Shown here: positions 201-48,920 of the stretch, piece by piece | Position numbering within the stretch: position 1 is the stretch's first letter | Layout of the letters: each line of letters begins with the position of its first letter | Assembly (NCBI GenBank): GCA_024679065.1 | Contig: JAGIQG010000010.1 | Location: 75,950,001-76,014,000, forward strand | DNA: 64,000 nucleotides | Direction: 5' to 3' | Source: Sphyrna mokarran | Taxonomy: Eukaryota | Notes under the pieces: model-generated | What the model saw: the letters and a program-made list of their open reading frames with translations, nothing else | Databases searched by the model: none | What the model was told of the DNA's origin: nothing | Made by a program: the position numbers and the translations under genes

Positions 201-603
201 ATGAATAGCGAGGAACATTATTATGCCCCGGCTCAAATGTATAAAGAATCATGCGCTTATCAGCGATCACAAACCCAGGAATATAATCAAAGCCCACCAG
301 CATGTCTCTATGTAGGGAGACAGCCACAGACTTCATATTCCAACCCTTCCTTGGCAGGACTTGAACAAGGGAGTCCCGCTGACATCTCACCTTTCGAAGT
401 GCCTGCGATATCAGAGGACCCTACAATCTCGCATCTTCATCACCCCCAGCAACATCACCCTGACCCACACACCCACCAAGGGGCTTGCTTTGGGACCGGC
501 TCCGAAATGGGTACCTTGGATGAACACAGCAGAACTCACCTGCCCTTCCCGTGGATGAAGTCGACCAAGTCGCATGCCCACGCCTGGAAAGGGCAATGGC
601 CGG
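201..603 (+). CDS. PDX1: Pdx1 exon 1 (N-terminal activation domain and hexapeptide)
   Basis: [22 protein letters not shown]...[10 protein letters not shown] resembles the vertebrate Pdx1 N-terminus. It contains the [20 protein letters not shown] hexapeptide region. Donor G|GTAAGT at 603/604 (phase 1). Confidence 0.96.
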
Positions 604-3600
604 GTAAGTGTCCAGGGGCTCTGGAAGGTAATTATATTTCCTAATCATTGTGGGTTTTTTTTAAAAAAAAGATAACCCAAGAAAATAATTAAACTGCACA
701 TTAGGACATGGATGGACAGCATTAGATAACAAGGGCTAAACATCATTTATTACTATGGATATTTCTTTCTGGTTAATGCTATCGATATTATTGATATGTT
801 AACAGCTTATTGATGTTCCAATTATCATTGTTAGCAGAAGCAATGCCACTGATGGTTATAATATCAAGATCAATTAACACTTCAAGTTGTCAGTGGATAT
901 GATGATGACCATTATACCATACTTGCACCACATTAGACGACAAATCTGCATATACCTCTTTAAAATCAAAACGGTGTGTTTATAATTACAGCACTTCAAA
1001 CGAACTTGTTCCTGATCTCCTTAAACAAGACTAATCCTACAGGTCAAACTGCTGTTGAGACGGCAGCACTGACAATACACGCGTCACTTTTTTTCATTTT
1101 TATGCATCACATCTTTTAATAATCAAAATTTCACTAACAAACCAACGTGGTTATAATCAAATCTGGTTGAGAAAATAATTCCATTAATCAAGATTTCCAA
1201 TGCCATTCTGAAACTGAACCCAGTCGGATTGAATGTAAAATTGATGTCGTTTTGTGACGGGATTTGGAACACGGACTTCCTTTAAAAAAAAGGCTGTAAA
1301 CGTTGTCGAAAGTTATCAAGCAAATGCTTGGCACCGTACGAAACACGTGGTAATATTTAAGTTGGACTATAACCGGACATCTCAGTTTGGAAAGAAAAGG
1401 GGGATCTGTTCCAGAGAAATGTCTTCCTCGATTTGGGTCTGTTAGTTGTTACTGAGGAATTGGAACCTAACTTCGGTGGGACACTTCGGAAGCAGGCAAA
1501 CGAACCAGATCTGCGGTTTTGGTTGCGTGCATAAGAGCCGCGTTAAATTAGTTTTTTAATAAAACGTCCATTTTCAAAACGCGAGACATGTCTCGTGTTT
1601 GGTAACATATTAAAATCTCATTAGGACAAACTAGAAATTGAATTCAGAGGCAAATCGCAGGGCATCCGGGTGATGATGTGATTGCTGGTCATAAAGGGAT
1701 TCTATATGTGTATAATTACTCTAGATTTGTTTGCATCAAGTCATAAAAGTGAAATCGCCGTCCATTACATAACCAAATATATGTGGACTGGAATCGAAGT
1801 CTCAACAAATGCTAAGCATTTCACCAAACATGTAAGTGGAGTTGTTAATTCTCCACGCCTGAAGCACTTGCGTGCTCACAGCAGACAGCCTCGTTAAAAC
1901 ACATGCAATAATTGTCACCTCCCTGGTATAAATTACGTACCTCAGAAATGATGTATCACTTTTAAAAAATTTTTTATTCATTTATTCATTTTAATGCTGC
2001 CTTTTTAGCACAAATGTAATCAGTAACCAGCAAATAGAGGGCCATCAGCATTGTTCCAGGAAACATTTTGCCTTTTTAAAATTTATATTTATCTGTCAAA
2101 GATTGATTTCTTTTGCTTTCGGAATCAAACTGTTGTTTTTCTTTCTTCTGTCAGATTGCGAGTGGGTTCTATTTCTGTAGCATTTACGATTCCGCCCGTC
2201 CCCTCCCCCCTACCCCCGTCATTAAAGTGAAACTTGAATCACAAGAACAACCAATTTCCAACAAGTAATTGGGAATGTTACAAGCAGCGTTAATATGCCT
2301 GGCTTACACATTGAGAACCCAATTTCTAGTCAATTCTAAAAATCAATTCTTTAAAAATGAAAAGTGGTCAGTAGACTTGTATTGCCAATTTGATAATGAT
2401 AGTGCCGTGGCCGTTCAGCATTTGGATTAGTTGATCAGAAGGCTGGACATTGTACATTTTACAACAAGTAAAATATGAGTCAAATCAGACATTTGGGGGC
2501 GATTCTATGAATTGCTTAGCGGGGTAACAAGAACGGCATCGAGCAATATAAATAAATAATCTGAAAAACATCATAACACTTTTCCTAACACGTTAGAAAA
2601 GCCAGGAACAGGAGCAGGCCATTGATTCGCTGGAACTTGCTCCAGATTCAGTTCAGCTGATCCGTACCTTAATTCCATTTACCACCTCTTCCTTATTCCT
2701 TAATACATTGATATTCACATTCACATTTGACATCGAAGCTCTGAAAGCTCTAGATGTCCCGGAACAGGTTTCCTTTGGGAAATGCCAGATCTCCACAACT
2801 CTTGCATGCTGCTTCCTGATCTTACTCTGAAATGATCTGCCTGCAATTTTAAAGTTATGTTCCCTTTGTGATTACTTCACCATAGCTGCTAATCCTTCGT
2901 ATCGCGTCCTTCTAACATTTTAAATAGTTCGATCAGACAAAGCCTAAATTTTCAGCCGATAGTTATACGCGACAGTTAATAAATGCTATCTATAAGCGGC
3001 AAATAATTCCGCGAGCTGGAAGCCGACGCTATCGGGCAACAGTAAATAAATGTATTCGCGTGCATGTTCAGACCTTCCTTGTGACATTGAGAATGAACGA
3101 CTTCATAAAAGCGTGAAGTCGATCAGGTTAGACCACCAGCACTTTATCGGTGAAATACCTTAATTGGGCGCAGAGTGATCGCGCTCGGCTTCACATTACG
3201 CCGCTGCACAATTTACGGCTGAGTTGAATGAACCTTTGTCTTTGAACATAGTCACCCCCTTGAATCAGAATATCAAGAGTTTTCAAGGAGCAAATATCAG
3301 TTTCTGGAGCCAAACAGTCATTTCCCCATGGAAAACACGAATTCAGAGGGAGGGTAAAGCTCGTTTTAACTAAACCAAGTAAGACAAATTCTAACCCACA
3401 GTTATATGAGGAAAATTGCTGATGGTTCAATTAAACACGTTTCATTTTTGCGGTGGTTTTATTTTCTAACGTGCAGCTTTTGGTCATCTCTACATATCCA
3501 CACTGGCGGGTCGTCATTCAAAAGGCCATCGCCTGGCTTTGAAGAGCAAGACAGCCTCGCCCGGCTTTCTAATTGTACAAGTGAAATATTGTGCTTAGTT

Positions 3601-4662
3601 TATAGAATCACATTTATTGAATCTCACTCATTTTATTACAATTCAATGTACACGTGTGGGCGTATACTCGGTCAGCAGAATGGATTCACGAACACTCTAG
3701 ACATTTTAAATGTATTTTATATTTAAATATATAGTCCTTTTCAATGACAGAATTAAATTTGATATTGATCATGCCTCATTAATTTGGATCGATTCTTATT
3801 AAAAATAATTTCCCTTTACAACCCAGAATAGAAAGAGACAGATGTATGCTGCAAAGTGTAATTTACAATGTATTAATTATACTGAAACGGCAGCAACTGA
3901 CAACAGTTGTAAGTCTTGACATTGGATTACGAATTTAACTTCATACATTTTTCATTCAACCTGCATTACAATCATTTCTAAATATATATGAGAAAACGAG
4001 TGCATTTAGGTAACAATGTAGCACTGTTCAAGAATCGTACGATTTAAAGCTATTTGGTGATTACTTTTTTTATTATTAGTGTTCACAAATAAGCTCACAG
4101 TAATACTGCGATGAAAATTCCCTAATTGTTATTTTCCTCGATTTATCTTTAACTGTTTGGGAAACTATGTTGTGATTAGCGAGATCATTCATGCACTCTT
4201 TCCAAACTGGAACCGCACAGGAGTTAATCGCAGCGAAAAAAAACTTCACGCATGTCCCTGTTAGACGGTGCGCCAATTATACATTAGCACAAACTTCCCA
4301 ATTAAATATCTTTCTCGTGTTTCAATTATTTATGGTGAAATCCGCATCTGCATTCATTCAAATTCGGTCTAGACATATCCGAAGTTACCCAAAAATGCGT
4401 CCGTTTTGAGATGTGGTATAAGTATATTATTATTACACAGTTAAGCTTAAGGAGACCCAGGCACTTGGCAGCTTTTCGGGATATTCCATGAGGCGATTCT
4501 GTGTGACTGGTTTCATGTCATTTCACCGTTTAAATCAAGTTCAAATGAAAAAAAAGTGCGATGGTCGCTGGAATTTAATTCTGAATCCGCGAACTATCTA
4601 AACGATCACAAACTGCACCGATCCGGTTCTGCCATGAAATATTTTGGAATGTAGAAAGTTTC

Positions 4663-5045
4663 AGGGCGGCACGGTGGCACAGTGGTTTAGCACCGCTATC
4701 TCACAGCGCCAGGGACCCAGGTTGGATTCCCTACTTGGTGGAGTTTGCACTTTCTCCCGTTGTCTGAGTGGGTTTCTTTCGGTGGCGAACACACCAGGAG
4801 TGGGCTGCAGGAGACTACAGGAGACTAGCCAAGGTGGAGAGTAGGCTGCGTGGCAAGAATCATTGAAACGCACAACAGACTTTCCTGTCAGTGACTCTGC
4901 GTTTCCTCCCACAGTCCAAAGATGTGCAGGTTAGTTGCATTGGTCATTCTCCTCTGTGGACCTGAGTGTGGCAACTAGGGGATTTTCACAGTAAGTTCAT
5001 TGCAGAATGGATATAAGTCTACTTGTGACTAATAAGTAATAAGTA
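4663..5045 (+). mobile_element. HE1-like tRNA-derived V-SINE in the Pdx1 intron, interrupted by a ~110-bp insert
   Basis: Head GGGCGGCACGGTGGCACAGTGG...GGTTGGATTCC (A/B boxes) and V-domain GGAGTTTGCAC...GTTTCCTCCCACAGTCCAAAGATGTGCAGGTTAG. Tail GGGGATTTTCACAGTAAGTTCATTGCAG...CTACTTGTGAC followed by TAATAAG repeats. Confidence 0.85.
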
Positions 5046-5278
5046 AACGTTCATGCCCTTTTCACAATAGTTTTCTCCTTTCCGCTGGAATAACCAACCT
5101 TTCACACTGCAGGGAGCTTGGTGTGTGCGGTTTTCGCTCTGGTTGGACTGAAATATTTCTAATTACGATAGGAATAACGCAGAATCGCTGACAATAGTGT
5201 TTGTTGTGTGTTTCAATGATTCTTGCCACGCAGCCTCCTTTCCTTCCACCTTGGCTAGTCTCCTGCAGTGTGTTCGTT

Positions 5279-5418
5279 TTGTATTTGCCTGACGAAGACA
5301 CAAGAGTGTTGAAAGCTCGCAATTATACTATCAAATAAATCGGTTGGATTTAAAATTGGTGTTGCTAAATTCTTACTGAGTTCTTACCACCCCAGTCCAA
5401 CGCCGGCATCTTTACATC
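5279..5418 (+). mobile_element. Solo Penelope-like terminal repeat (pLTR) fragment with an 11-bp TSD
   Basis: Nearly identical over ~95 bp to the 3' end of the Penelope element at 16412-16508. Flanked by the direct repeat GTGTGTTCGTT at 5268-5278 and 5419-5429. Confidence 0.88.
5281..5328 (+). ncRNA. Minimal type I hammerhead ribozyme motif (Penelope-derived)
   Basis: Stem I TTGC/GCAA (extendable GTAT/ATAC), core CTGACGA (5289-5295), stem II GACAC-aaga-GTGTT, GAAA (5311-5314), minimal palindromic stem III AGCT, predicted cleavage after C5318. Confidence 0.75.
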
Positions 5419-5864
5419 GTGTGTTCGTTCTCCCAGTGCTTAGTGTGGGGCAAACCGACACTGCCCCACATGGTTTGAAAAGATCAATTTCTGGGGAAGT
5501 GCACATGATTCCCAAAATGATTTACACAAACGGGAAAGGGTCGGGAGGGGTGGGGGGAGTGCTGCCTGCTGTGCTTTTGAACTGCGTTAATCGCAGGGCG
5601 TTCTCAGCATTTCAATAGTGGTTTGAATAGCTAGGATTAATGGATGGGAAAATGCAAGTTTCCAGCGTGCCCTTAATCTCATTTAAACTATGCATTTGCT
5701 TAATAACAGGTGTAGGTTAGCCAGAATATCGTGTTTAATTCGTTTGGCTGAATATTGTTCGTTGATTTTATTTTTCATACTTTCTGCCGCAACGAGGCGA
5801 AAAAAAATGCAGCTATTGAAAGCTGTACTGAAAGCGGTTGTTGATGCTTTCTCTGTTTTTTTAG

Positions 5865-6268
5865 GGAGTTCCTTCATGGTGGAACAGGAAGAAAATAAGC
5901 GCACGCGCACTGCTTACACCCGGGCTCAGTTGCTGGAGTTGGAGAAGGAATTCCTCTTCAATAAGTACATCTCCAGACCCCGCAGAGTGGAGCTAGCTGT
6001 CATGTTAAACCTCACCGAGAGGCACATAAAGATCTGGTTCCAAAACAGGAGGATGAAGTGGAAAAAAGAAGAGGATAAGAAAAGAGCTAGGAGTGGCGCC
6101 CCCGAACAGGACTCTGTGGTCTCCTCTGGAGATCTCAAGGAGGATGTGTGCGCTCCCAATAATCCGACTGGAAGAGAGTTACTGTCTGTCGGGGTCTCCT
6201 CTTCACAACCTGCCTCTTCCCTAAGGAGCCAAGGTACGGCTACTAGAGACTCGATGAAAAATTCCTAA
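5865..6268 (+). CDS. PDX1: Pdx1 exon 2 (homeodomain and C-terminus)
   Basis: Acceptor ctctgtttttttag|GG (phase 1) joins exon 1 in frame (403+404=807 nt, 268 aa). Homeodomain [58 protein letters not shown] with the Pdx-specific His. C-terminal EQDSVVSSG resembles the Pdx1 SPOP-binding region. Linkage to Cdx2 and URAD favours Pdx1 over Pdx2. Confidence 0.96.
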
Positions 6269-6721
6269 ACTCAAACTTGCCAGAACACTTAACAACATCA
6301 CACCACTTAGATCATTTCAATTGGAATTTAACAAGATTCAAGGTTTTAAATTAACTGGATAGGCTGAAGACTCCCGTTAGAATTAGCAACAAATACGCAG
6401 CATTCAGTGACAGCAGCGACATCGACTTAACATTTGTCATTTACTTGTTTTACATTTTGCAATTATAGTCGGAATATAATAATATATTGGAAAGAAATGT
6501 TTACATTCCAGCGAGTGAAAGATGGCTGCGATTGCTCAGAAATAAGAAAACAAGATATTCATATCAGGTTATGTTTGTGTTGTTTCGATTTTATGTATCA
6601 ACAGTAGACAATTATTTTTATTTCGTCTCGTGTTAATTATAATGGAATTATTAGTCAGTGAATAATCTGCATTGTACATTTCCTTCCAGCGGTAGAACCT
6701 CAAGTGCTGCCTCTGGTTACA

Positions 6722-6967
6722 AATAAAAACCACATATTTGGAATAAAAACAAAATGTGCTGGAAATATATATATATTAGAAGTTGTATATGTACAAATAT
6801 TGCCGTGCTCTGTATATTGTTTTAATGTTGTGTGTGTTTTCCATCAGCGCATGTTGTTTTAATCCCGCCTGAAAAGCAAACTGTTACCTTCACTGCTACA
6901 TCTTGTTGTACATTGTATGGCGATTCTATCGTATCTATCCGCAGATCTTAAGAACTATTTCAATAAA
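6722..6967 (+). terminator. Candidate Pdx1 polyadenylation signals
   Basis: AATAAA at 6722, 6742 and 6962, downstream of an AU-rich 3' UTR. Which one is used cannot be determined. Confidence 0.5.
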
Positions 6968-7509
6968 GGAAAAAGACCCTCCAAAACTGGTGTTCACCAA
7001 ATGTATGCGGGAATGGGCATGTCTGACAAAATTCCATTCATTAAAGTATCAAAATGAAACGTTCTCCCCCCCTTCTTAGACAATCGAACGACACGAAAAC
7101 TAGGGGTAAGTCTTCAGCATCACCTTTAAAATATACGTTCCCTTCCTCCTTGAACCAATACCTCCAGAGCAGGATTGTAGATCGCCAATATAGCAGATCA
7201 ACTCTCTCACTGTCCGTCTGTCTGTCTAGGATTGTCAAACTAATGGCGGATTTATCACCATCAATAATAAAGTTGAGACTGAAGAGCTTCATTTCACTTA
7301 GGAACCTTACAGTAAACAGAAAGGGAACCTTTTATTATCTTCGATTGGATTGGATCAAATTCCAAAGCTAGAATTCAAATTACAAACTAGAGTTCAAATC
7401 CGTTACTATATATCACCCATTGAAATAGATTTGGATGGAATAATCGTTTTTTTAATATGTGGGCAATTGATATTTACAACATAGGGCCACGTTTTATTGA
7501 AAGTCATTG

Positions 7510-7870
7510 CCAGAAGGAGACTTTATGAAGGTATTCAAGATTCTGAGGTGTATGGACAGGGCAAATAGTGAGAAGCTGTTCCTTCTCAAGGAAGCATCAA
7601 GAACTATACATTCAAAATATTGGCAAAAGAATAAAAATTAAGTGAGGAATTTCTTTCACAGAGACTGAAATGAATTTTATATGAGTGTGGTTGAAGCAGG
7701 TTCGACTGAAGCATTCAAAAGGGAATTGGATTGCTATCTGAAAATACAAACAACAAGGGTCCCACAAATGATCCCTGGGATACTCCACTGATGACTGACT
7801 TCCATACACAAAAAGACCCATCTTTTTGACTCATCAGGCTGAATGGACTCCTTCTGCACTGTGACCATTG
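7510..7870 (+). mobile_element. Decayed CR1-like LINE 3' fragment
   Basis: GGAGACTTTATGAAGGTATTCAAGATTCTGAGG...GACAGGG...AAGCTGTTCC...TTTCTTTCACAGAG pattern and tail GGCTGAATGGACTCCTTCTG. Confidence 0.6.
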
Positions 7871-8251
7871 AAACTTGCTGTATCTTGTAAACAATTTAAG
7901 ATTTACTTGAAATGTGTTTTTTATGGAATGTGGGCATCCAGCATTTATTGCCTATCCTTGCCCTTGAGAAGGTATTGGTGAGCTGCCTATTTAACGTGCT
8001 GCAGTCCATCGAATATGTGTAACTCCACAGTGCTGAAAGGAAAGGTATTCCAGTATCTTGAACAGTGAAGGAACAGTGATGTAGTTGCAAGACAGAATCG
8101 GATGTTTGACTTGGAGAGGAATTTGCAGTTGGTAGTATTCCCATGTGTCTGCTGCCCTTGTCCTTCTAGGTGGTAGAGTTTGCAGACTTGAAATGTCCCA
8201 TTAAATGAGATTTACTGAGTTGCTGTAGTATATTGAATGTATTCAAGAGGT

Positions 8252-8985
8252 AGAACATAGAACATTACAGCGCAGAACAGGCCCTTCGGCTTTCGGTGTT
8301 GCGCCGACCAATTAACAAAAAGCAATAACCCTCTAACCTAAACCATTCCCTTTTCATCCATAAGCTTATCTACTAACCTCTTAAACGCCACCAAACTTGG
8401 CGCATCTACAACTGCAGCAGGCAGGGCATTCCATACCCTTACCACCCTCTGGGTAAAGAACCTACCTCTGACATCCGTCCTATAACTACCACCCCTTAAT
8501 TTAAAGCTATGTCCCCTCGTGCTAGCTTTCTCCATCCTAGGAAAAAGGCTATCACTGTCCACCCTATCTAAACCTCTAATCATCTTATATGTTTCAATAA
8601 GGTCTCCTCTTAGCCGCCTTCTTTCTAACGAAAACAACCTCAAATCCCTCAGCCTCTCTTCATAAGACCTGCCCTCCATACAGGCAACATCCTGGTAAAC
8701 CTCCTCTGTACCCTCTCCAATGCCTCCACATCTTTCTTATAATGCGGGGACCAGAACTGCACACAATACTCCAAGTGCGGCCGCACTAGAGTTTTGTACA
8801 GTTGCAACATGACGTTGCGGCTCCGAAATTCAATCCCCCTACCAATAAAAGCTAAGACTCCATATGCCTTCTTAACAACCTTATCGACTTGATTGCCAAC
8901 TTTCAGGGATCTATGCATATATACACCAAGATCCCTCTGTTCTTCAACGCTATTAAGAGTCCTACCATTAGCTCTATGCTCTACA
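8252..8985 (-). mobile_element. CR1/HER1-like LINE 3' portion (ORF2 C-terminus, one frameshift)
   Basis: QRDLGV...LYKTLVRPHLEYCVQFWSPHYKKDVEALERVQRRFTRMLP followed by YEERLRDLRLFSLERRRLRGDLIETYK...FFTQRVVRVWNALP. Ends in a short repeat tail. Confidence 0.93.
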
Positions 8986-9019
8986 CATTTGTTATTCCTA
9001 GCTATAGCACTTGGGGCAA

Positions 9020-12505: not shown

Positions 12506-14301
12506 GGTTTGCTATTGCTGTTTTCTGTGTCCAAGTTGATGCCATCTAGTTTTATTCTTTTTTGACTGATCTCTGGAGGGTTGCTACAATGGGGTGGCTT
12601 CCGGGGTCATTTCAGGGCGCAGCCTGGAGTCAAAGATAGGGCAAGCCAGATAAAGGCAGCAAATTTCTTTCTCTAAAGAAACAGGTGAACTAGATGTTTT
12701 TAAGCCAGCTGCCAATGATAGTTCCATGGCGTTATTACGGAAGCTAGCTTTCAATTCCAATGGTCTTATTTTAAATTGATCAATTGAATGTTAATTCCAC
12801 GGCCCACCAGATGCCGTAATGGGAATTGAATCCGTAGAATATTATTCCAGTGACATTACAACCGTCTTCCCGAATCAGTGACTTTACCAACCTTATTATA
12901 GCTGATTCAATACACACACTTTAAAAGAAATCAAGATGAGTTATAATAAAGGGTAGGATACCCCGTTTTGAAGCATTCATTTCTCTTACTTCCTTGGTCT
13001 TATGTAGCATTCCTCTGTGTAAAAGAGAGAGAGGGGACGGGCAGGGGGAGGTGACTGCCTCCCATAAGCATTGAGATTGCAGAGATTTCTTTGAAACCTG
13101 TTGTACCTGTTTGGATACAGTTTCCTCTGATTTTTCCTATCTCTATTTTGGAAGGGCATGAGCTCAGCGCTGTCCGTCTCTGTGACCACCGAGAAGGGAG
13201 TAGAAAAAGCAGACTGCTGGTATATACCCCAATGAATCCACTCCTTTCTCCCCCTCCACCCAGCTCAGAGACTCCAGAACACCCGGCATTCCCACCTGGA
13301 GAAAGTACAAGTAGATGAGGAACAGGTGATATATGCCTCTTCTAAATGATTTTTCCCCATCATCCTCACTCGAATGCTGAAATAATTTGTACATAGTTGG
13401 TTGCACCCAGCGTTCGCTGTCTTCCAGCTGCAGGGTTGAATCAGGAGTACAGCACACTTTGGACAATCTTGGCATTTTACAATTCCTTAGGCGCAGTGAA
13501 GAGATTCCAGGTCGTTTACTTAGGAGTTCGTTTTTGAACCCGAGCCCTAGACTAATCCATGGCACTTGTAGCAAATAATAACACGCGAACATTAAAAAGA
13601 AATAGTGCAGACTGACTTGTGATGTTAACGGGACAGAAACCAGTGCAGAGTGAAGGCTACATCGATTCAGCGGGTTATAGCGGAGTAATAAGACTCTGTT
13701 TACTGTTCCATTTGAGGTGTGAAATGTGAGGTTGGACTAATACAGTTAACACATATTTCGCCTTCTTTGTACCGTATAATAATAAACTGAACCACTGAAA
13801 GTTGGATCAACCACAACTTTAGTAAGTGCTACCTCGACTGGGAATTAATATCAGGAAAAAAGTGAAACGATATTTTTAAATGCCATGACCTCCATGACCA
13901 GGGTCCCGGAAACGTGTACAGAACAACTAAATTTAATAGCTAATTTAGACCTTCACATATCTGTAAAAAAAAAGATATTAAAACGCTATCGATAACCGAT
14001 GGAAATCTGAAATAAGTCGTCCTACTCAAGTTATGTTGTCTATGGCTGGTTATCGATCTGAAAATTTCTACATTGGAATTAAGAAAGGCGAGATACCACG
14101 GGCTTTTAAGGATATTAGTAGTTTGCCTCTACATTATGCACACGAACAATTTCAGACCAAGATCTGGGACTGCTGTGATACCTCCTGAGGTTGAATAGTC
14201 AACGCATTATCGCTGCCAATGGTTACTTGGAGTTTCACAATATTTCTATCCCATCTGAGCAACCGCGCAGATGAAAGCTGGGAACTTTAAAAGCTGAACA
14301 C

Positions 14302-16508
14302 CAGATTCATCAACCGCACTTACAAGACAGTCCCGAGCTTCACCCAAGCACAAAGCAAGGCCATCCGTGCTCTCAAGACCAACCACAACATTGTCATCAA
14401 ACCAGCAGACAAAGGAGGCGCCATCGTCATACTGAACAGAACGGACTACTGTGAAGAAGTGTACCGACAACTAAACAATGTGAAACACTACAGACAGTTA
14501 CCAGCAGATCCGACCAAAGAACACACTTGTCAACTCAACACTTTGATCAAAACCTTTGATCCGGACCTTCAGAACAGCCTCCGGGCTCTCATTCCACGTA
14601 CTCCCTGCATTGGAGATCTCTACTGACTCCCAAAGATACACAAGGCAAACACACCCAGCCGTCCCATCGTATCGGGCAATGGGACCCTGTGTGAGAACCT
14701 CTCCAGCTATATCGAGGGCATCCTGAAACCCATTGTACAAAGAACCCCCAGCTTTTGTCTTGACACTACGGACTTCCTACAGAAACTCAACACGCATGGA
14801 GCAGTTGAACCAGGGACACTCCCTGTCACAATGGATGTCTTGGCGCTCTACACCAACATCCCCCACGATGATGGTATTGCTGCAACTGCCTCAGTACTCA
14901 ATGCCAACAACTGCCAGTTTCCGGATGCAATTTTACAACTCATCCGCTTCATCTTGGACCACAATGTCTTCACCTTCAACAATCAGCTTTTCATCCAGGC
15001 ACATGGAACAGCCATGGGGACCAAATTCGCACCTCAGTATGCTAACATCTTCATGCACAGGTTCGAACAAGACTTGTTCACCACACAAGATCTTCAACCA
15101 AGGTTATATACTAGATACATTGATGACATCTTTTCCCTTTGGACTCATGGTGAACAATCATTGAAACAACTGTATGATGATATCAACAAGTTCCATCCCA
15201 CCATCAGACTCACCATGACTATTCTCCAGAATCAGTTGCATTCTCGGACACACGCATCTCCATCAAGGACGGTCATCTCAGCACCTCACTGTACCGCAAA
15301 CTGACAGACAACCTCACAACGCTCCACTTCTCCAGCTTCCACCCTAGACATGTTAAAGAAGCCATTCCCTATGGACAAGCCCTCTGTATACACAGAATTT
15401 GCTCAGATGAGGAGGATCGTGACAGACACCTCCAGACGCTGAAGGATGCCCTTGTGAGAACAGGATATGACGCTTGACTCATTGATCGACAGTTCCGACG
15501 TGCCACAGCGATAAACCACACTGACCTCCTCAGAAGACGAACATGGGACACGGTGAACAGAGTACCTTTTGTTGTCCAGTACTTCCCCGGAGCGGAGAAG
15601 CTACGACATCTTCTCCGGAGTCTTCAACATATCATTGATGACGATGAACATCTCGCTAGGGCCATCCCCACCCCTCTACTTCTTGCTTTCAGACAACCAC
15701 ACAACCTCAAACAGATCATTGTTCGCAGCAAACTACCCAACCTTCAGGAGAACAGTGACCACAATACCACACAACCCTGCCACAGCAACCTCTGCAAGAC
15801 ATGCCAGATCATAAATATGGACGACATCATCAAACGTGAGGATACCATTCACCAGGTACACGGTACATACTCTTGCAACTCGGCCAATGTCGTCTACCTA
15901 ATACGTTGCAAGAAAGGATGTCCCGAAGCATGGTACATTGGGGAGACCATGTAGACACTACGACATCGGATGAATGAGCATCACTCAACAATCACCAGGC
16001 AAAACAGTTCCCTTCCTGTGGGCGAACACTTCAGCAGTCATGGGCATTCGGCCTCTGACCTGCAGGTAAATGTTCTTCAAGGGGGCCTTCGTGACACACG
16101 ACAGCGCAGAGTTGCTGAGCAGAGACTGATAGCCAACTTCCGCACACATGAGGATGGTCTTAATAGGGATCTTGGCTTCATGACACACTATCTGTAACCC
16201 CCGTAACTTGCCTGGGTTAGCAAAAAACCTCACTTACTGTGCTGTCTGGAGAAAATACACAATTCTCTTACCAATGCTCAGGATTCCCTTCACACACATT
16301 GTTCGCCACTTTAACACTTCATTAGCAGGTTAGATGTAAGGATTCACATTCTAATCAGCAATCTGTGACTGTCTGTGTTGATATGAGTGCTATTGCAGAC
16401 CAGAACACTGCATTTGCCTGACGAAGACACAGAGTGTTGAAAGCTCGCAAATTTACTATCAAATAAATCGGTTGGATTTAAAATTGGTGTTGCTAAATTC
16501 TTACTGAG
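14302..16508 (+). mobile_element. Penelope-like retroelement (RT plus GIY-YIG endonuclease), 5'-truncated, with stops and a frameshift
   Basis: IVIKPADKGGA, PKIHK...RPIVS, MDVLALYTNIPH, GTAMGTKFAPQYANIFM and RYIDDIF mark the RT. CNSANVVYLIRCKKGCPEAWYIGET and EQRLIANF...GLN mark GIY-YIG. Premature stops near 14624 and 15952; the 3' terminal repeat carries a hammerhead motif. Confidence 0.95.
16412..16452 (+). ncRNA. Minimal type I hammerhead ribozyme in the Penelope 3' repeat
   Basis: ATTTGC-CTGACGA-AGACAC-AGA-GTGTT-GAAA-GC-TC-GCAAAT: perfect 6-bp stem I, intact catalytic core and palindromic AGCT stem III. Confidence 0.8.
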
Positions 16509-42077: not shown

Positions 42078-43120
42078 CTGAGATATCATATGAAAAATAC
42101 GTCAGTACAATGCCACAAACCCAGTTTGCGTACACGCAGGAATTAGTACATTCAGACTACATAAATTACAAAGAAATACCAACTAAATAAATGTTCATAC
42201 TCTGAAGAGCATTGTTAATTAAGTATATGCAAATTATAATTTCAGATGCATAGATGGCTTGTTATGACTTTAGCTTTCCACCTAACAATCGAATAACAGC
42301 AAAGAGTAAATCTTAAATCGGTCTTTATTTTTACTTGCCCATAGGAACCTGCACATAAAATTATCTTTAGCATGTGGTGTCTAATACCTGTATTTAAAAT
42401 TGCCCTACACTTCGACAACAGATTTTGCCTCCGATTAGTGAAGTTATTGCAAAGAAGGGAGACCGCGGGTTTTTGCTGCGCTTTTAACGAACCAGGCAGT
42501 TTATAGAAGCCAAGTGGTGTCAAAAAGTGCACCACTGGAGATGCATGTATCACCGTTACAAATGTGATACATAATAACATAATTTCATCAGTCGATGCAA
42601 CTCGCTGGAATTGGATGGGCGATGATTAATATTTTGTTATGGCAACGGCAAATTAAAACCCATCGGATTTGCTGATCATGTGTTCTACATTATCTATGAT
42701 GAAAGACAGGTTCGAATCATTTTCATTGTTGATTTCCTATATTTGTGAAATTATAAATACTGGCTGCCCCGATTTCGATGAAACTTTTAGCGATCGACTT
42801 CCCTATTGCTCTGAGACAAAGTTTGAAAGGACATCCTTAAACTGCCGCCTGTTAAAGAAAATCACACTTCAAGGTTTATGCAGTGAAATTATAGCGGTTG
42901 AACGCACCCAATCAGATTCTTCCTACACATTTATCACCAGATTGGTATAGAAGAGTTTTCAAATATAATTTTTAAACTGTTCTGCGGTTTTACGAATTCG
43001 TCCATCGTCTCGATCAGAAGTGGAAAAAGAAGTGGATTTAGATGTTATTATCACGGTAAAATATGCAAGGCCCTCTGAATGTACAATGGACGCGACCAAG
43101 TGGCAATTCTGGTAACTGAC

Positions 43121-43266
43121 CTGTCTCTCAGACAGCCCCAGATTAGCTGCCAGCTCCGCTTTGCGCCGGATAGTGATATAGCGGCTGTAATGAAACTCTT
43201 TCTCCAACTCAAGTCTCTGGTGATCTGTATACACCACCCGATATTTGTCCTTTGTTCTGGTTTTAT
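43121..43266 (-). CDS. CDX2: Cdx2 exon 2 (homeodomain helices 1-2)
   Basis: Acceptor cttttatctcgtag|AT and donor CAG|GTCAGT; 146 nt. [48 protein letters not shown]. Confidence 0.96.
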
Positions 43267-46200
43267 CTACGAGATAAAAGGAGTTGAAGCCCATGTAATA
43301 AAAGCTAAATACATTTTGTATTATTGTGATGTCGATTCTCTGGGATTGGGAAACAATTGAATCTTTCTCGAGGCCTGAAATGAAATACCCATTGCAGTTA
43401 ATTAGGTAGTTAAATATCTGATAAATATTATTGAACGTATAGTGATTTGGTTTCTCATGTTGACTTGTTGCGGAGCTCATCCGAAAACAATTTCCGACAG
43501 CCATTGATAGCTACATGGAGACCTTCCGAAATACTGTGCCCCTGTTATTAGAAACATACACCGGCCAACATATAGGCTAATGTGTATTCATTTTCAGAAT
43601 TGCTCCATATAAAGGCGATTAATTTGAAAGAGTCAAAAACATAACTCAAAAATACGTCCTTGCAGATTAGATTAAAAGGTTACACGAGGTCAGTCAATAG
43701 CTGATCCCAAATGCATAAGCAGAGGATAAAATACAGGCGCCGCCTCGCTTAGCCTACAAAGTGCATCAAGTTGTCGATTCCCAGGGGGCAAACCATATTC
43801 GAAATGTATCTGCCTGGTTTTATTGTATAGATTAAATTATATATGTTTTCTATGCTCTGATGCTTCATTATCCAATTATATTCTCAACCATCTACCACTG
43901 TCCAACATCTTTAATATTTTTATCTGAAATTGCCCTGTACTTCTGCATCATATTTTGTCCCCGATCAAATGATCCTTCGAAAAATGCACAGATCAGTGAA
44001 ATCATTGCATAACAAATGATGCGTGCCTCATTTTCTGGCAAACTCGGTGTTCCATTCCCTCTTAGCAGGGCAGTTTCTGGTTAGAGATGGACCTTTGCCC
44101 CTTGTCCCACCAGCTGCATCATCCGAACCGGACTTATCATATTACTTATTTGGCACTCCTGACATGGTACGTTCTTGTTTACAATAAAGGATACCACTCT
44201 GGCGGAGAAAGCTGGGTAATGTGAGTCGAGATGATTAAAAGTTTTGAGGCAAGATTGGAAAGATCTTGCCCTGAGATTTTTTTAACTTGCTTCTTCGAAG
44301 CATTTGAAGTAACTCAGATTGATGCATTTCACAAGTGACCACCCGATTTTGATAGTTTTATTCATTAATCAACAGCCAAAGTGGAACACTACATAAGGCC
44401 AAACTTCAGATTGAAATTTCATAGCAGAAACTGCTTGTGTTAGTCAATAATGAAAAATGTAAGGCGCGGGGGGCGGATATTAATTTCGTGTGTATATTGT
44501 GGCTGGTTTAGGTCAAAGCCAGCGCTAGATTGTAGTAACAACAAGAGCTAATCGAAATAACTGATCAACCCACTGCCAAGGAAACGAATACCAAAGCTGG
44601 TCAATAATCTAGTTCACTGCTTTCACAGCGGGTTTGTGTATGTGTGTGTGAGGGCGGGGGGGGGAGGGGGGAATCATTTTGTAGTGCATTTCGTGTGCAT
44701 TTTGATAAAATGGACAAGTCAAGGATGTTAAAGAAATAAAGAACAGTTAATCTAAACATTATCATAACCTGCAAAACTAAAATCTCAGCGGCAAATGAGG
44801 CATTTGAGCTCTCGGGGAATGTTCACGTTCTGCAAAACAAAAAGCAGGTGAAAATGAGACACCTCACCCTCCTTCCCGCGGCGTGAGCAAGGTTCCTAAC
44901 ATTGAATCTTCCCAATGGCAATCCTAATACAAAAGAAGCAGGTGTGTTTATGTGTAAGGCTGGAAGTGTTTAAAAATACACTTGCATTGAGGCAAGTTGT
45001 TTTACTGATGGAGTTAAACCCGGATTTAATAATTATATCGGTTTATTTATTTTCGCTAGTGAGTGGAATCAGGCCTCACTCGCTCTGAATTTTTTTTCGC
45101 CTGTGGCAGGCTAACTGTTCAGGTAATTCACTGCAAACCACAACAAAAGCACCCTGCAAGGAAACATGTCTGATGTGGGGAATCTGTATACAGCTGTTTA
45201 AAGGAGAACACGGCTCAAACAATGCAGTACAAGACGATCTTATCAAAGGGAATTTTTCAGTGATGGAATAACAAACCCATTCTGTTTGAATCACCACTCC
45301 TGAACAAATGGCGGCAAAGGCTTTCATCACAGGCCTCGGCACATTTACATTTAAAACCCCATTCCTAAAAGAATGCTGAAGAATTTCAATAGGGAACCTG
45401 CTTCAAAGATCAGGATTGGGTATTGGGGCAGGGGCAGCGCAAACAGGCATTTTCAGAATGCGAAAAAAAATTGATCTGACAAATGTACTTTTAAAAAGAC
45501 ACATTAATCATCTAAAAACACATGGCTTATCTCGGGAAGCACGAATTACACAAATAACCTCTGGTTCTGAATGGAAGGGTCAGAGAACATACTGGGGACG
45601 GCTTAGGCCTCGTCATTATACTTTTCTACCCGTTTTACCAAAAAACTTAATTCTGTATAAACTGAATAAAAGTAAAAGAAAAACATACTTTTAAAAAGGC
45701 ATAGTTTCGTGTTTGAACAAATTCCAAGTTCTCAATAGATTTTTAGGGTGAAAAGGAACCTCACTTTTAGACTTCGACTTTTATTTTACCCAGAATTAAA
45801 GACTATTACTTTTGCAATCCAAACTGCTGCAATTTCTAATTGTTAGTTATGAGCGGTGTCTCTTTTCCCTGCTATTATTTTGAATTTAGAATACTAACGT
45901 GTACTGGAAATTAATGGTCACGTGATGAACGGGTTTAATGTATGGATGAGGATGTGTACTCATGGTGAGACTCATTAACCCAATTATTTTAATACATTGG
46001 AATAGTCTTGAATACATTTTAATTAAAGTTAAACCTCTGCAATTTGGCTAATTTTATTTATTATTATTCATGCATGTGGAACTTTTCAACGAGCGAGTGA
46101 AGTATCCGAAATAAATTTGTCTATGGACAATAAAGTGAAATTGAATTAAACTGAATTTGGATCATAATTTCACAGATATTGGGCGGAGATGATTGACATA

Positions 46201-48254
46201 AATGCGTGTCACAGATAACACTTCGTTAGTCGGAATGAGTAATATTTATTGTTCTGTGATGGCCTGGGAACTGAATGGGATCATGCAGAAATGTCAAAAT
46301 TCTTTATTTGCTGCGAAACGCGCCACCCTTTTCCGGGAGCTGGTCGGAACAATGGGCTGGAATTGGCAGAGTAAGGTGTATATCAAAGCACTCAATGTTG
46401 AAAGGTCCTAACACGTAAGAGATCAACCATCAGCTTGTAGCTTGAAGAAAAGGAAACGACATAAATAAATTAAAGAGAGTTGGGCTCCGTGCAGGTCTTC
46501 AGGCTAAAATAAATCTGCATCACAACTAAGAACGGCGCCTGGTCGTGCAGTCTCTTTACCATTTGAGTATTTGCATCTGACCCAAGAGTTGAACCGACAT
46601 CTTACTCTCCCACGCTGCCAACCGAGGTTGAGGGGCATCGCATCGCATTGAAGGTGCAAATTCTTCATAATTGAAACAGGCCTCCGAGGCTTCACTTCTA
46701 ACCGTCAAAAGTAGATCTCAGAAAACAGCTAATTTTGTGAAATATACTCTTAGCTATTTTGCTTTGCTTTCTCTGAATCTAAAAGTTACATCAACGCTGT
46801 TAAATCCTAACCAAGTCTCTCCTGCCAACTAAAATAGCGTGTTATATTGGAATACTGGTTGAAGAGTTAACAAGAGTGAAACCATTATTTTAATGTTGTA
46901 TACGAACCTGGATAAGTGAAGATTTGTTGTATCAGAGAGTGCCTTGGAAATAATTTTGTGAAAGTTAATGTTAATTTTCGGTGAGTGAGGAGTGTTCTAG
47001 GTGGAGCTGAGGGAACGCAGAACCCATTCTAAATTACTGTACACCACGCAAGTGGTAACCAGTGTTCAGGCCGATCATTCATAAAATTATACAGTTGTTT
47101 AATGCTTGGAAAATAGCGGGTACTAATAAAAGTATTTGCTTAATGACACAGAAACAATTGTCAGACGACACTCTTCAGTGATTTATATGGCCGAAATTGG
47201 TTATAAAATCTTCGAATGTCGATAACAGGGTTTGGAATTATTGCAATTAAAGCATGTCTCCACATTTTAAATCTCTTATCAGGATTGCTAATGTATAAGT
47301 CAAGGTGAAAGAAGGCAGAAGGAATGGCAGCCACAGAACAGCGTTACAAATTTACTATCATTCATTTATACATTAATAATAATGCTATTATATTGGCCTG
47401 TTACAACCAGTGTCCACATGAGAACGATAATAAATGCTGCTAACCTTGTAGCACAATGCACACATGGAACTGTTCTTTCAGACATCACCATGGAAAACAT
47501 TCTAACAAGGTATCACCTCCTCATTTATTAGTGTTTAAGCGAAATTTTCCTGACAGTTTGACAGCGAATGATACATACTATAAATAGATGATTGGTGCAT
47601 ATTGTTGGTACACAGGCTGCCTACATCAGGATCCTATTTGTGGTTCGGATGGGTAAATCTTAAAGGTAAGAAGTTTTTTTTTCCAACGCTGTTTATTATG
47701 CGTAGAATTTTTAACAGGGTGCTGCTTCCGTAGTCTTACTGGGTTTGAAGGTTAAATTATTTTACTGTATTGGTCTGATTTTGATGAAACCCAGCGTCAA
47801 GAATATTTGCTTACACTGACTCGGTACAGAGAATTCGAGTTTATAACCTATCTGTAAAAAAAATGCGATCAATATCCCCAGATGCGGTTGGGGTTGCGGC
47901 AGAGGGGATTTCCTCCCCTCGCGCAATACAAAAAAATCAGATCATTCTTCTTTACATGTGGTATCTAGAAAATTAAATGCAATATGATTACAATTACAAA
48001 TTTGTCGTGGCTTTTAATTTAAGGGCTGGACTATTCCCTACAAGGAAGCAATGGGCAGTTTAGTTTGGCAGCTAACTTTTAACATCAACTGCCAGTGAAT
48101 CTTCACAGCAGAAATGCACGAAAGCCTCGCTTTTTGCACGGTTTATGCTAGCGGGAGAGCTGAGGCGACTGTGGTAGTAAAATGAGAAAGAAGCACTTGG
48201 CAGCATTCCCTCCATCACGCTCAGCTTGGGGGATTTTAGGACACACAATCTTAC

Positions 48255-48684
48255 CCGTAGATGATAGCTGCTGTCCTGGTTTCCTCATCCACTGGTAAGG
48301 GTTGCGCCTTTGGCTGTTGGGAGAATGCTGTTCCAAAAGGTTATTGTTTAAAGGCTGTATGGCAGCAGCTGAGCCCGGGGCCTGGACCGAGTTATAATCT
48401 GTAGGGTTGTAAGACAGGGTCCCCGGTGCAGAGTTGATGGCGTGCACCGTGTTTGGAGGTGCCGCGTAAGCACCCCACTCCTCCCGGGAAGGGCCATAAG
48501 GAGAGGGCCAGGATCCTGAAGCTTGCGGGTGGTTGTCCAAATTCACCCCGGGTACATGATAACCAGCATAGTCCGAGTACTGTGGCGCGCTGACAAAATT
48601 CTGAGCGCCTAGATTGATGCCAGAATGCCGGACGGATCCTGAGTACATGTTCATGTCTTTATCCAAAAGATAGCTCACGTACAT
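48255..48684 (-). CDS. CDX2: Cdx2 exon 1 (caudal activation domain and hexapeptide)
   Basis: GCCACCAACATG start context. MYVSYLLDKDMNMYSGSVRHSGINLGAQNFVSAPQYSDYAGYHV resembles the Cdx2 N-terminus; hexapeptide PYQWMRK. Donor G|GTAAG (phase 1). Spliced total 430+146+195=771 nt, 256 aa. Confidence 0.95.
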
Positions 48685-48814
48685 GTTGGTGGCAGGGCGC
48701 AATCGGCATGCTGCTTTGGAAAGATCCAGAGTATTAATTTGGGGGACCTTTTTTCCTGGTTTGCCTTGAGCAGTGTCTCTCCAAAGGTGATCAGGACGAT
48801 CCGCCCGTGTCCCA

Positions 48815-48920
48815 CATGATTAACGATTGTTTACAAGCTTCTATTAGTAATGGCAAACTAAAGGCAGGTGACGTCAACTAATTCGTCCTGCCAAAGATTT
48901 GCATTTAAAAAGATAAGGAG
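48815..48920 (-). promoter_or_regulatory. Cdx2 core promoter
   Basis: Minus strand: GATA site, octamer ATGCAAAT (48897-48904), CRE TGACGTCA (48869-48876), then CATTACTAATAGAAGCTTGTAAACAATCGTTAATCA, which closely resembles my recollection of the mammalian CDX2 start region. Confidence 0.75.

Follow-up and report, generated by a model that had tools for sequence, protein, structure and literature searches.

A recent, probably neutral Penelope-like terminal-repeat insertion carrying a minimal hammerhead motif in the Pdx1 intron of Sphyrna mokarran

The window (the whole stretch of DNA analysed, 64,000 nt) contains, close to its start, a homeodomain gene with two coding exons:

201-603, forward strand: Pdx1 coding exon 1, from the ATG to the donor, with the FPWMK hexapeptide; GT donor at 604
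604-5864, forward strand: Pdx1 intron, 5261 nt, phase 1, GT..AG, with the frame continuous over the splice, as deduced from the sequence
5865-6268, forward strand: Pdx1 coding exon 2, with the homeodomain, to the stop

The encoded homeodomain is identical at 61 of 62 residues to the PDX1 of PDB entry 2h1k. Past the coding end lies an AATAAA cluster (6722-7630), and further downstream, on the reverse strand at 42959-48819, a Cdx gene (Caudal_act, E 5.5e-44), tail-to-tail with Pdx1 as in the ParaHox cluster arrangement. We take this neighbour to be Cdx2 rather than another Cdx gene. Cartilaginous fish also have Pdx2, which is linked to Gsx2 and Pdgfra, while Pdx1 clusters with Gsx1 and Cdx2 (PMC2944030). 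The homeodomain identity, the Cdx neighbour and the synteny of the two paralogues together identify the host gene as Pdx1; Pdx2, considered as an alternative, is ruled out by the Cdx neighbour and the synteny described in PMC2944030.

Within the intron, 140 bp at 5279-5418 stand between two exact 11-nt direct repeats, the target-site duplication (TSD) GTGTGTTCGTT. The features of this insertion, and of a related copy elsewhere in the window, are as follows:

5268-5278, forward strand: 5' copy of the TSD, exact repeat, with complementarity to element nt 5291-5301 by which it is predicted to mask the ribozyme core
5279-5418, forward strand: terminal repeat and tail, 5'-truncated, of a young Penelope-like element family, recognised by near-identical copies genome-wide and a sibling with an ORF for reverse transcriptase (RT) and GIY-YIG
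5280-5327, forward strand: minimal type I hammerhead motif, from a stem-checked descriptor and folding
5334-5339, forward strand: AATAAA brought by the element, the fifth in the Pdx1 intron
5386-5418, forward strand: optional AC-rich tail of about 33 nt; 3' ends of 28/66 and 35/66 sampled copies define it
5419-5429, forward strand: 3' copy of the TSD, exact repeat; the motif is single at the empty site of relatives
14291-16508, forward strand: second, longer copy from this Penelope-like family, broken, with RT, endonuclease region and terminal repeat; hammerhead at 16418, no tail

An earlier note had described a 140-bp Penelope terminal-repeat fragment bounded by an exact 11-bp TSD and lying in sense orientation about 550 nt upstream of the exon 2 acceptor. 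The repeats were found, the motif and the Pdx1 exons are both on the forward strand, and the nominal cleavage site is 546 nt before exon 2. Two other repeats were noticed in the window: a SINE-like element in two pieces at 4657-5047, which lies in the Pdx1 intron shortly before the Penelope-like insert, and a dispersed repeat of 750 bp at 8248-8999, with 92-96% identity to copies elsewhere.

Comparison of the 140-bp insert with the genome gave 1,328 candidate copies, and all 40 that were scored were 97-100% identical to it; its nearest siblings have 2 differences in 139 nt (98.6% identity). Exact patterns for the two halves of the family's motif occur at 2,157 and 3,331 places genome-wide. The insert itself is non-coding, and the coding capacity of the family was seen in longer copies. 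In one sibling (L050), RT (RVT_1, E 3e-6) and GIY-YIG share a single 429-aa frame, the latter on the C-terminal 143 aa at an E of 2.3e-5, above the cut-off; among the Atlas neighbours of this protein, GIY-YIG is found in 31-34% of members. In two others (L008 and L103) the ORF begins directly behind the tail, forming a pLTR-ORF tandem junction. The broken copy at 14291-16508, 2.2 kb long and carrying stops and a frameshift, lies between Pdx1 and the Cdx gene, outside Pdx1. A Pfam search of this copy found RVT_1 (E 6.6e-9) and missed the endonuclease domain, and its hammerhead is located 220 nt after the ORF stop. The near-identical copies, together with RT and GIY-YIG in one frame of a sibling, bear out the Penelope-like terminal-repeat origin that had been proposed for the insert.

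The ends of the insert are those of its family. Our sample of 66 copies was drawn from the first 68 places listed for one half-motif pattern, on contig C1; six loci in it supply both halves of a head-to-head pair. The 3' ends of these copies are bimodal, 28 of them falling at 5375-5395 and 35 at 5413 or further on. The 5' ends peak before stem I, where 20 of the 66 copies start 4-25 nt ahead of C3 (8 of them belonging to four inverted pairs), whereas the following 75 nt hold 6. The observation that the insert begins almost at stem I is thus correct, but members of the family are truncated here more often than at any other point. The clustering of breakpoints ahead of the hammerhead core may be due to an RNA 5' end, to stalling of the RT or to a template-switch site. 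TSDs of 12-13 nt flank other short copies (L005, L064 and L071), and a simple TSD search in 53 sibling copies gave none for most. As its breakpoints, tail and TSD recur in other copies, the cassette is a common product of its Penelope-like family, not a special construct; judged by these siblings, it is the 5'-truncated terminal repeat and tail of a Penelope-like element.

The hammerhead motif comprises a core C3-A9 at 5289-5295 (CUGACGA), followed by an extra A at 5296, and a stem II of 5 bp (5297-5301/5306-5310) closed by the loop AAGA. The second core part, 5311-5318, consists of G12-A14 (5311-5313), A15.1 (5314), a G-C dinucleotide, U16.1 (5317) and C17 (5318), after which the nominal cleavage position falls. 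Stem I (5280-5288/5319-5327) has four pairs at 5285-5288/5319-5322, a U.U mismatch and four further pairs at 5280-5283/5324-5327. The motif has no true stem III: A15.1 and U16.1 are just 2 nt apart, so helix III is unable to close in a monomer, and the stretch 5314-5317 forms the palindrome AGCU. The stem-checked descriptor detected 2 hammerheads in the 64-kb window (at 5289 and 16418), and none of 100 dinucleotide shuffles contained one. An Rfam search returned no gathering match on the insert region and no hammerhead among 3 matches at E<=10; we regard these weak matches, to snoR32, CRISPR-DR11 and STnc550 (E 1.4-3.8), as fortuitous. In folding z-scores, the region did not stand out (-0.78, -1.56 and -1.17). 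The pair 10.1-11.1 is a G5297-U5310 wobble, the second position being U in 51 of 66 sampled siblings and C in 15; this wobble lowers the claim of an active ribozyme and leaves the family assignment untouched. The proposal of a minimal type I hammerhead with an intact core is therefore upheld, with the CUGACGA...GAAA core and both helices I and II identified.

The age of the insertion was addressed with contigs from 8 of 24 listed sequencing runs: X1, the best-covering run, which may be the assembly's own sample, and seven runs of relatives (X2, X3, X4, X7, X12, X13 and X15), which differ by about 5-9% from the window in the flanks. X1 spans both junctions, at 4977-5309 with no difference and at 5393-6300 with one, and its contigs showed no joint skipping the insert, which may therefore be fixed or homozygous. 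At 5241, X1 has a 4-letter deletion allele at about half the depth, and X13 and X15 have a gap of 4 letters at 5240. X3 had no cover at the insertion site and was left out of the informative count; in the six informative runs of relatives, a single contig joins over the site and the insert is absent. The joint leads from 5268 to 5430 in X4, X7, X12, X13 and X15, and from 5268 to 5437 in X2. In the five joints to 5430, the two sides are separated by 20 letters, which open with about 10 letters missing from the window and end in one copy of the target motif; the window's lineage thus also has a small deletion beside the insertion. On this comparison, the insertion is most likely recent and lineage-specific. 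The earlier note had itself named absence from related species as evidence against a regulatory role, and absence is what all six informative runs show.

The empty site bears directly on the idea that the motif belongs with the conserved, domesticated hammerheads in introns of amniote genes such as RECK or CTCL. Its intronic place in a developmental regulator would suit such a role, which has a precedent (PMC6155905), but the orthologous site is not conserved and is empty in relatives, which already refutes it. Misjoined contigs are unlikely, given that six runs of five or six organisms agree, and the motif also lacks helix III and retains 98.6% identity to dispersed mobile copies. We give this explanation practically no chance.

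The presence of such a motif in the intron, and its good preservation, are both unsurprising. A general minimal-hammerhead pattern matched 55,544 times in the genome (27,720 on the forward and 27,824 on the reverse strand), against 9 for a reversed control; these matches stem from many families with differing stem II sequences. This corresponds to one motif of the class per 100 kb per strand, and, with an even spread assumed, to a chance of about 5% of finding a sense copy in a 5.3-kb intron (P = 0.05 per intron and strand). At a divergence of 2/139, the expected number of core changes is 0.19, and the probability of none is 0.83 without selection. The core is intact in 46 of the 60 sampled copies that cover it, and, since siblings are 97-99% identical, an intact core is expected without selection. 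Departures among the 66 siblings amount to 13/501 at core and 214/5,768 at non-core positions, figures that are mixed with subfamily variants and uninformative on selection. In X7, X12, X13 and X15, no contig was found on the 5' half of the hammerhead (window 5277-5305) at 80% likeness, and in X2-X4 the summed depth at 5272-5317 is more than 100-fold below that of X1. These contigs and depths suggest that the Penelope-like family has expanded in the window's lineage, bearing in mind that depth is no copy number.

One property does set the Pdx1 copy apart. It departs from the family at 5282 and 5325, two positions that face each other in outer stem I, where a U-A pair replaces a C.U mismatch. 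The 5' change occurs in 26 of 2,157 copies and the 3' change in 3 of 3,331, and the Pdx1 copy is the only one with both, where 0.02-0.04 such copies are expected; a subfamily with both changes was sought among the genome copies and not found. The isolated motif folds at -10.1 kcal/mol, compared with a best of -9.8 and a mode of -7.7 among 48 sampled intact siblings, and a null of two random changes reaches this stability in 0.9% of 20,000 trials (post-hoc P about 0.009, or about 0.01). This strengthening of stem I is one point in favour of a regulatory reading, on a test that is post hoc. Stem I is, however, not the limiting part of the hammerhead.

The strengthened stem, together with the intact core, the sense orientation, the thousands of potential trans partners in the genome and the protein-assisted cutting shown for an anole element (PMC11167929), can be read as conditional cleavage: a fraction of nascent Pdx1 RNA would be cut with the help of an AGCU-paired trans hammerhead RNA, the element protein as a chaperone, or both, and the stem I changes would reflect early co-option or a mild dose effect. 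The double change is, however, less telling than it looks. A distance of 3 nt separates the change at 5282 from the 5' junction, and of the 25 other copies that carry this change, 4 are likewise joined to their flank at that point; the letter at 5325 is read from the assembly alone. As a single change would already make a pair, the double change is not what selection would predict, and an event of 1% is expected in hundreds of 55,544 motifs. To these points is added the absence of the insert in 6/6 informative relatives.

Folding predictions also weigh against conditional cleavage. The upstream TSD at 5268-5278 is complementary to 5291-5301, with 9 Watson-Crick pairs and 1 G-U among 11 positions; at least 9 Watson-Crick pairs with this segment are reached by 2% of 5,090 intron 11-mers. 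Complementarity between target and element RNA might arise if the two anneal at insertion, once the target is nicked; 5' inversions are present in many siblings. The probability of forming stem I and stem II with an open core is 0.13 for the bare 52-mer and falls to <=0.0004 with at least 21 nt of upstream flank including the TSD, at both 37 and 25 C, whereas among 29 siblings folded with 100 nt of their own flanks, 16 keep a probability of 0.03-0.10 and 13 are below 0.004; all these values are equilibrium predictions, which ignore co-transcriptional kinetics and proteins. The upstream TSD is thus predicted to sequester the hammerhead core. An AGCU/AGCU helix contributes just -2.5 kcal/mol before any association cost, and the minimum-energy prediction for two strands uses strand-swapped stems in its place. 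A partner for dimerisation in cis, allowing one mismatch per core half, was sought between 1 and 16,417, and none was found besides the motif at 5289; the next hammerhead, at 16418, is about 9 kb past the AATAAA cluster.

Published work on minimal hammerhead ribozymes (min-HHRs) agrees with these predictions. Single min-HHRs gave no detectable cleavage and dimers and trimers had low activity (PMC4209133; echoed in PMC6765202), and versions with an engineered helix III were active mostly at non-physiological Mg2+ (PMC4209133). For cutting, the ribozyme of the anole element required the element's protein; insertion in vitro did not depend on the ribozyme, which, in the data described there, left no RNA-seq ends at its site (PMC11167929). 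The need for a dimer, proposed earlier, stands, given that helix III cannot close in the monomer and that a single min-HHR is reported without detectable cleavage. Taken together, conditional cleavage of nascent Pdx1 RNA appears very improbable. Its most specific form, early domestication in which a lineage-specific insert with a strengthened stem I cuts part of the nascent Pdx1 RNA when trans partner RNA or Penelope protein is present, and thus ties Pdx1 dose to transposon activity, is slightly less probable still.

The insert might also alter Pdx1 slightly without any catalysis. About 20 nt beyond its sense AATAAA at 5334-5339 comes a G/U-rich stretch; together the two could cause premature polyadenylation, or the added sequence could change intron structure. 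Four other sense AATAAA and seven ATTAAA are already present in the intron, however, and the insert is at least 435 nt from the acceptor, with the pyrimidine tract intact, so that we see only a slight chance of such an effect.

The best explanation is, with a probability of about 0.88, that a 5'-truncated Penelope-like terminal repeat inserted here recently, as a lineage-specific event, and that the resulting cassette is likely neutral and predicted to cause no meaningful cutting of Pdx1 pre-mRNA. We observe directly that the insert belongs to the family, is flanked by a TSD, is young and is missing from the site in relatives; the steps of insertion we infer. The element protein would have cut one strand of the target and begun reverse transcription at the 3' end of the AC-rich tail; synthesis would have ended just 5' of stem I, at the commonest breakpoint of the family, and repair would have left the 11-bp duplication. 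The ribozyme would have been carried along as part of the terminal repeat. Lacking helix III, it would need a second copy, through the AGCU palindrome, and probably also the protein of the element; no second copy would be available in Pdx1 RNA, whose upstream duplication is, by prediction, base-paired to the core. The neutral insertion that the earlier note held out as its alternative is therefore the best reading, and the effect on Pdx1 splicing or dose that it thought possible finds no backing: the insert is absent in relatives, its class is common genome-wide, no partner copy exists in Pdx1 and the flank is predicted to misfold the core.

As it stands, the insert has little significance: the genome has tens of thousands of minimal hammerheads derived from Penelope elements, and this one was noticed for its well-known host gene. 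With its TSD and the empty site of relatives, it is nevertheless a clean, dated example, on which one could test whether such motifs ever cut host pre-mRNA. If Pdx1 RNA were cut, mobile ribozymes would be seen to have a way of becoming domesticated intronic ones.

A literature search for shark, Penelope and hammerhead ribozyme found one review, in which the shark enters just through the shape of its head, and the supplements of PMC4209133 list species that may include cartilaginous fish. Among known systems, the animal non-LTR retrozymes (bioRxiv 10.64898/2026.07.22.740005) resemble the insert in being short, hammerhead-bearing and related to the terminal repeats of Penelope-like elements (PLEs). 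Unlike retrozymes, which form tandem arrays, the insert is a single truncated copy with a TSD, and the upstream sequence of its siblings runs into the PLE ORF. In Xenopus, 42-44% of retrozyme copies are reported as intronic, with some depletion after normalising (same source); copies of related elements within genes may therefore be under mild negative selection. The amniote intronic hammerheads RECK, CTCL and DTNB (PMC6155905) are, like the Pdx1 motif, type I, intronic and related to retroelement ribozymes. They are conserved across lineages, whereas the Pdx1 insert is lineage-specific, minimal and near-identical to mobile copies, and so lacks conservation, the defining property of domesticated intronic hammerheads (PMC6155905).

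The closest likenesses are with Penelope-like elements themselves. In the PAc/Poseidon element of Anolis (Frangieh et al. 2024, PMC11167929), as in the shark family, RT and GIY-YIG are encoded in one ORF, and both have two 3'-end sites about 30-40 nt apart around an AC-rich tail, about 110-120 nt after stem II; in the anole element, this optional tail of 30-40 nt lies between two start sites of reverse transcription. Unlike the ORF of PAc, which starts at stem II, that of the shark family has the first ATG of its frame after the tail (L008 and L103). With the min-HHRs in the pseudo-LTRs of metazoan PLEs (Cervera & De la Pena 2014, PMC4209133), the motif shares the core CUGANGA/GAAA/UH, helices I and II, the extra nucleotide between 9 and 10.1 (A5296) and the palindrome at 15.2-16.2 (AGCU, 5314-5317). 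It differs in having a 5-bp helix II and, as a family-wide variant, G-U rather than G-C at 10.1-11.1; G10.1-C11.1, which the literature calls highly conserved, is a recurrent trait that stands outside the descriptor of that source. The 55,544 pattern matches counted here are well above the 4,000-9,000 given there for coelacanth and Xenopus, by a method that differs from ours. On these shared features, the structure of the insert is that of the min-HHRs of metazoan Penelope-like elements, and we file it as a fragment of such an element.
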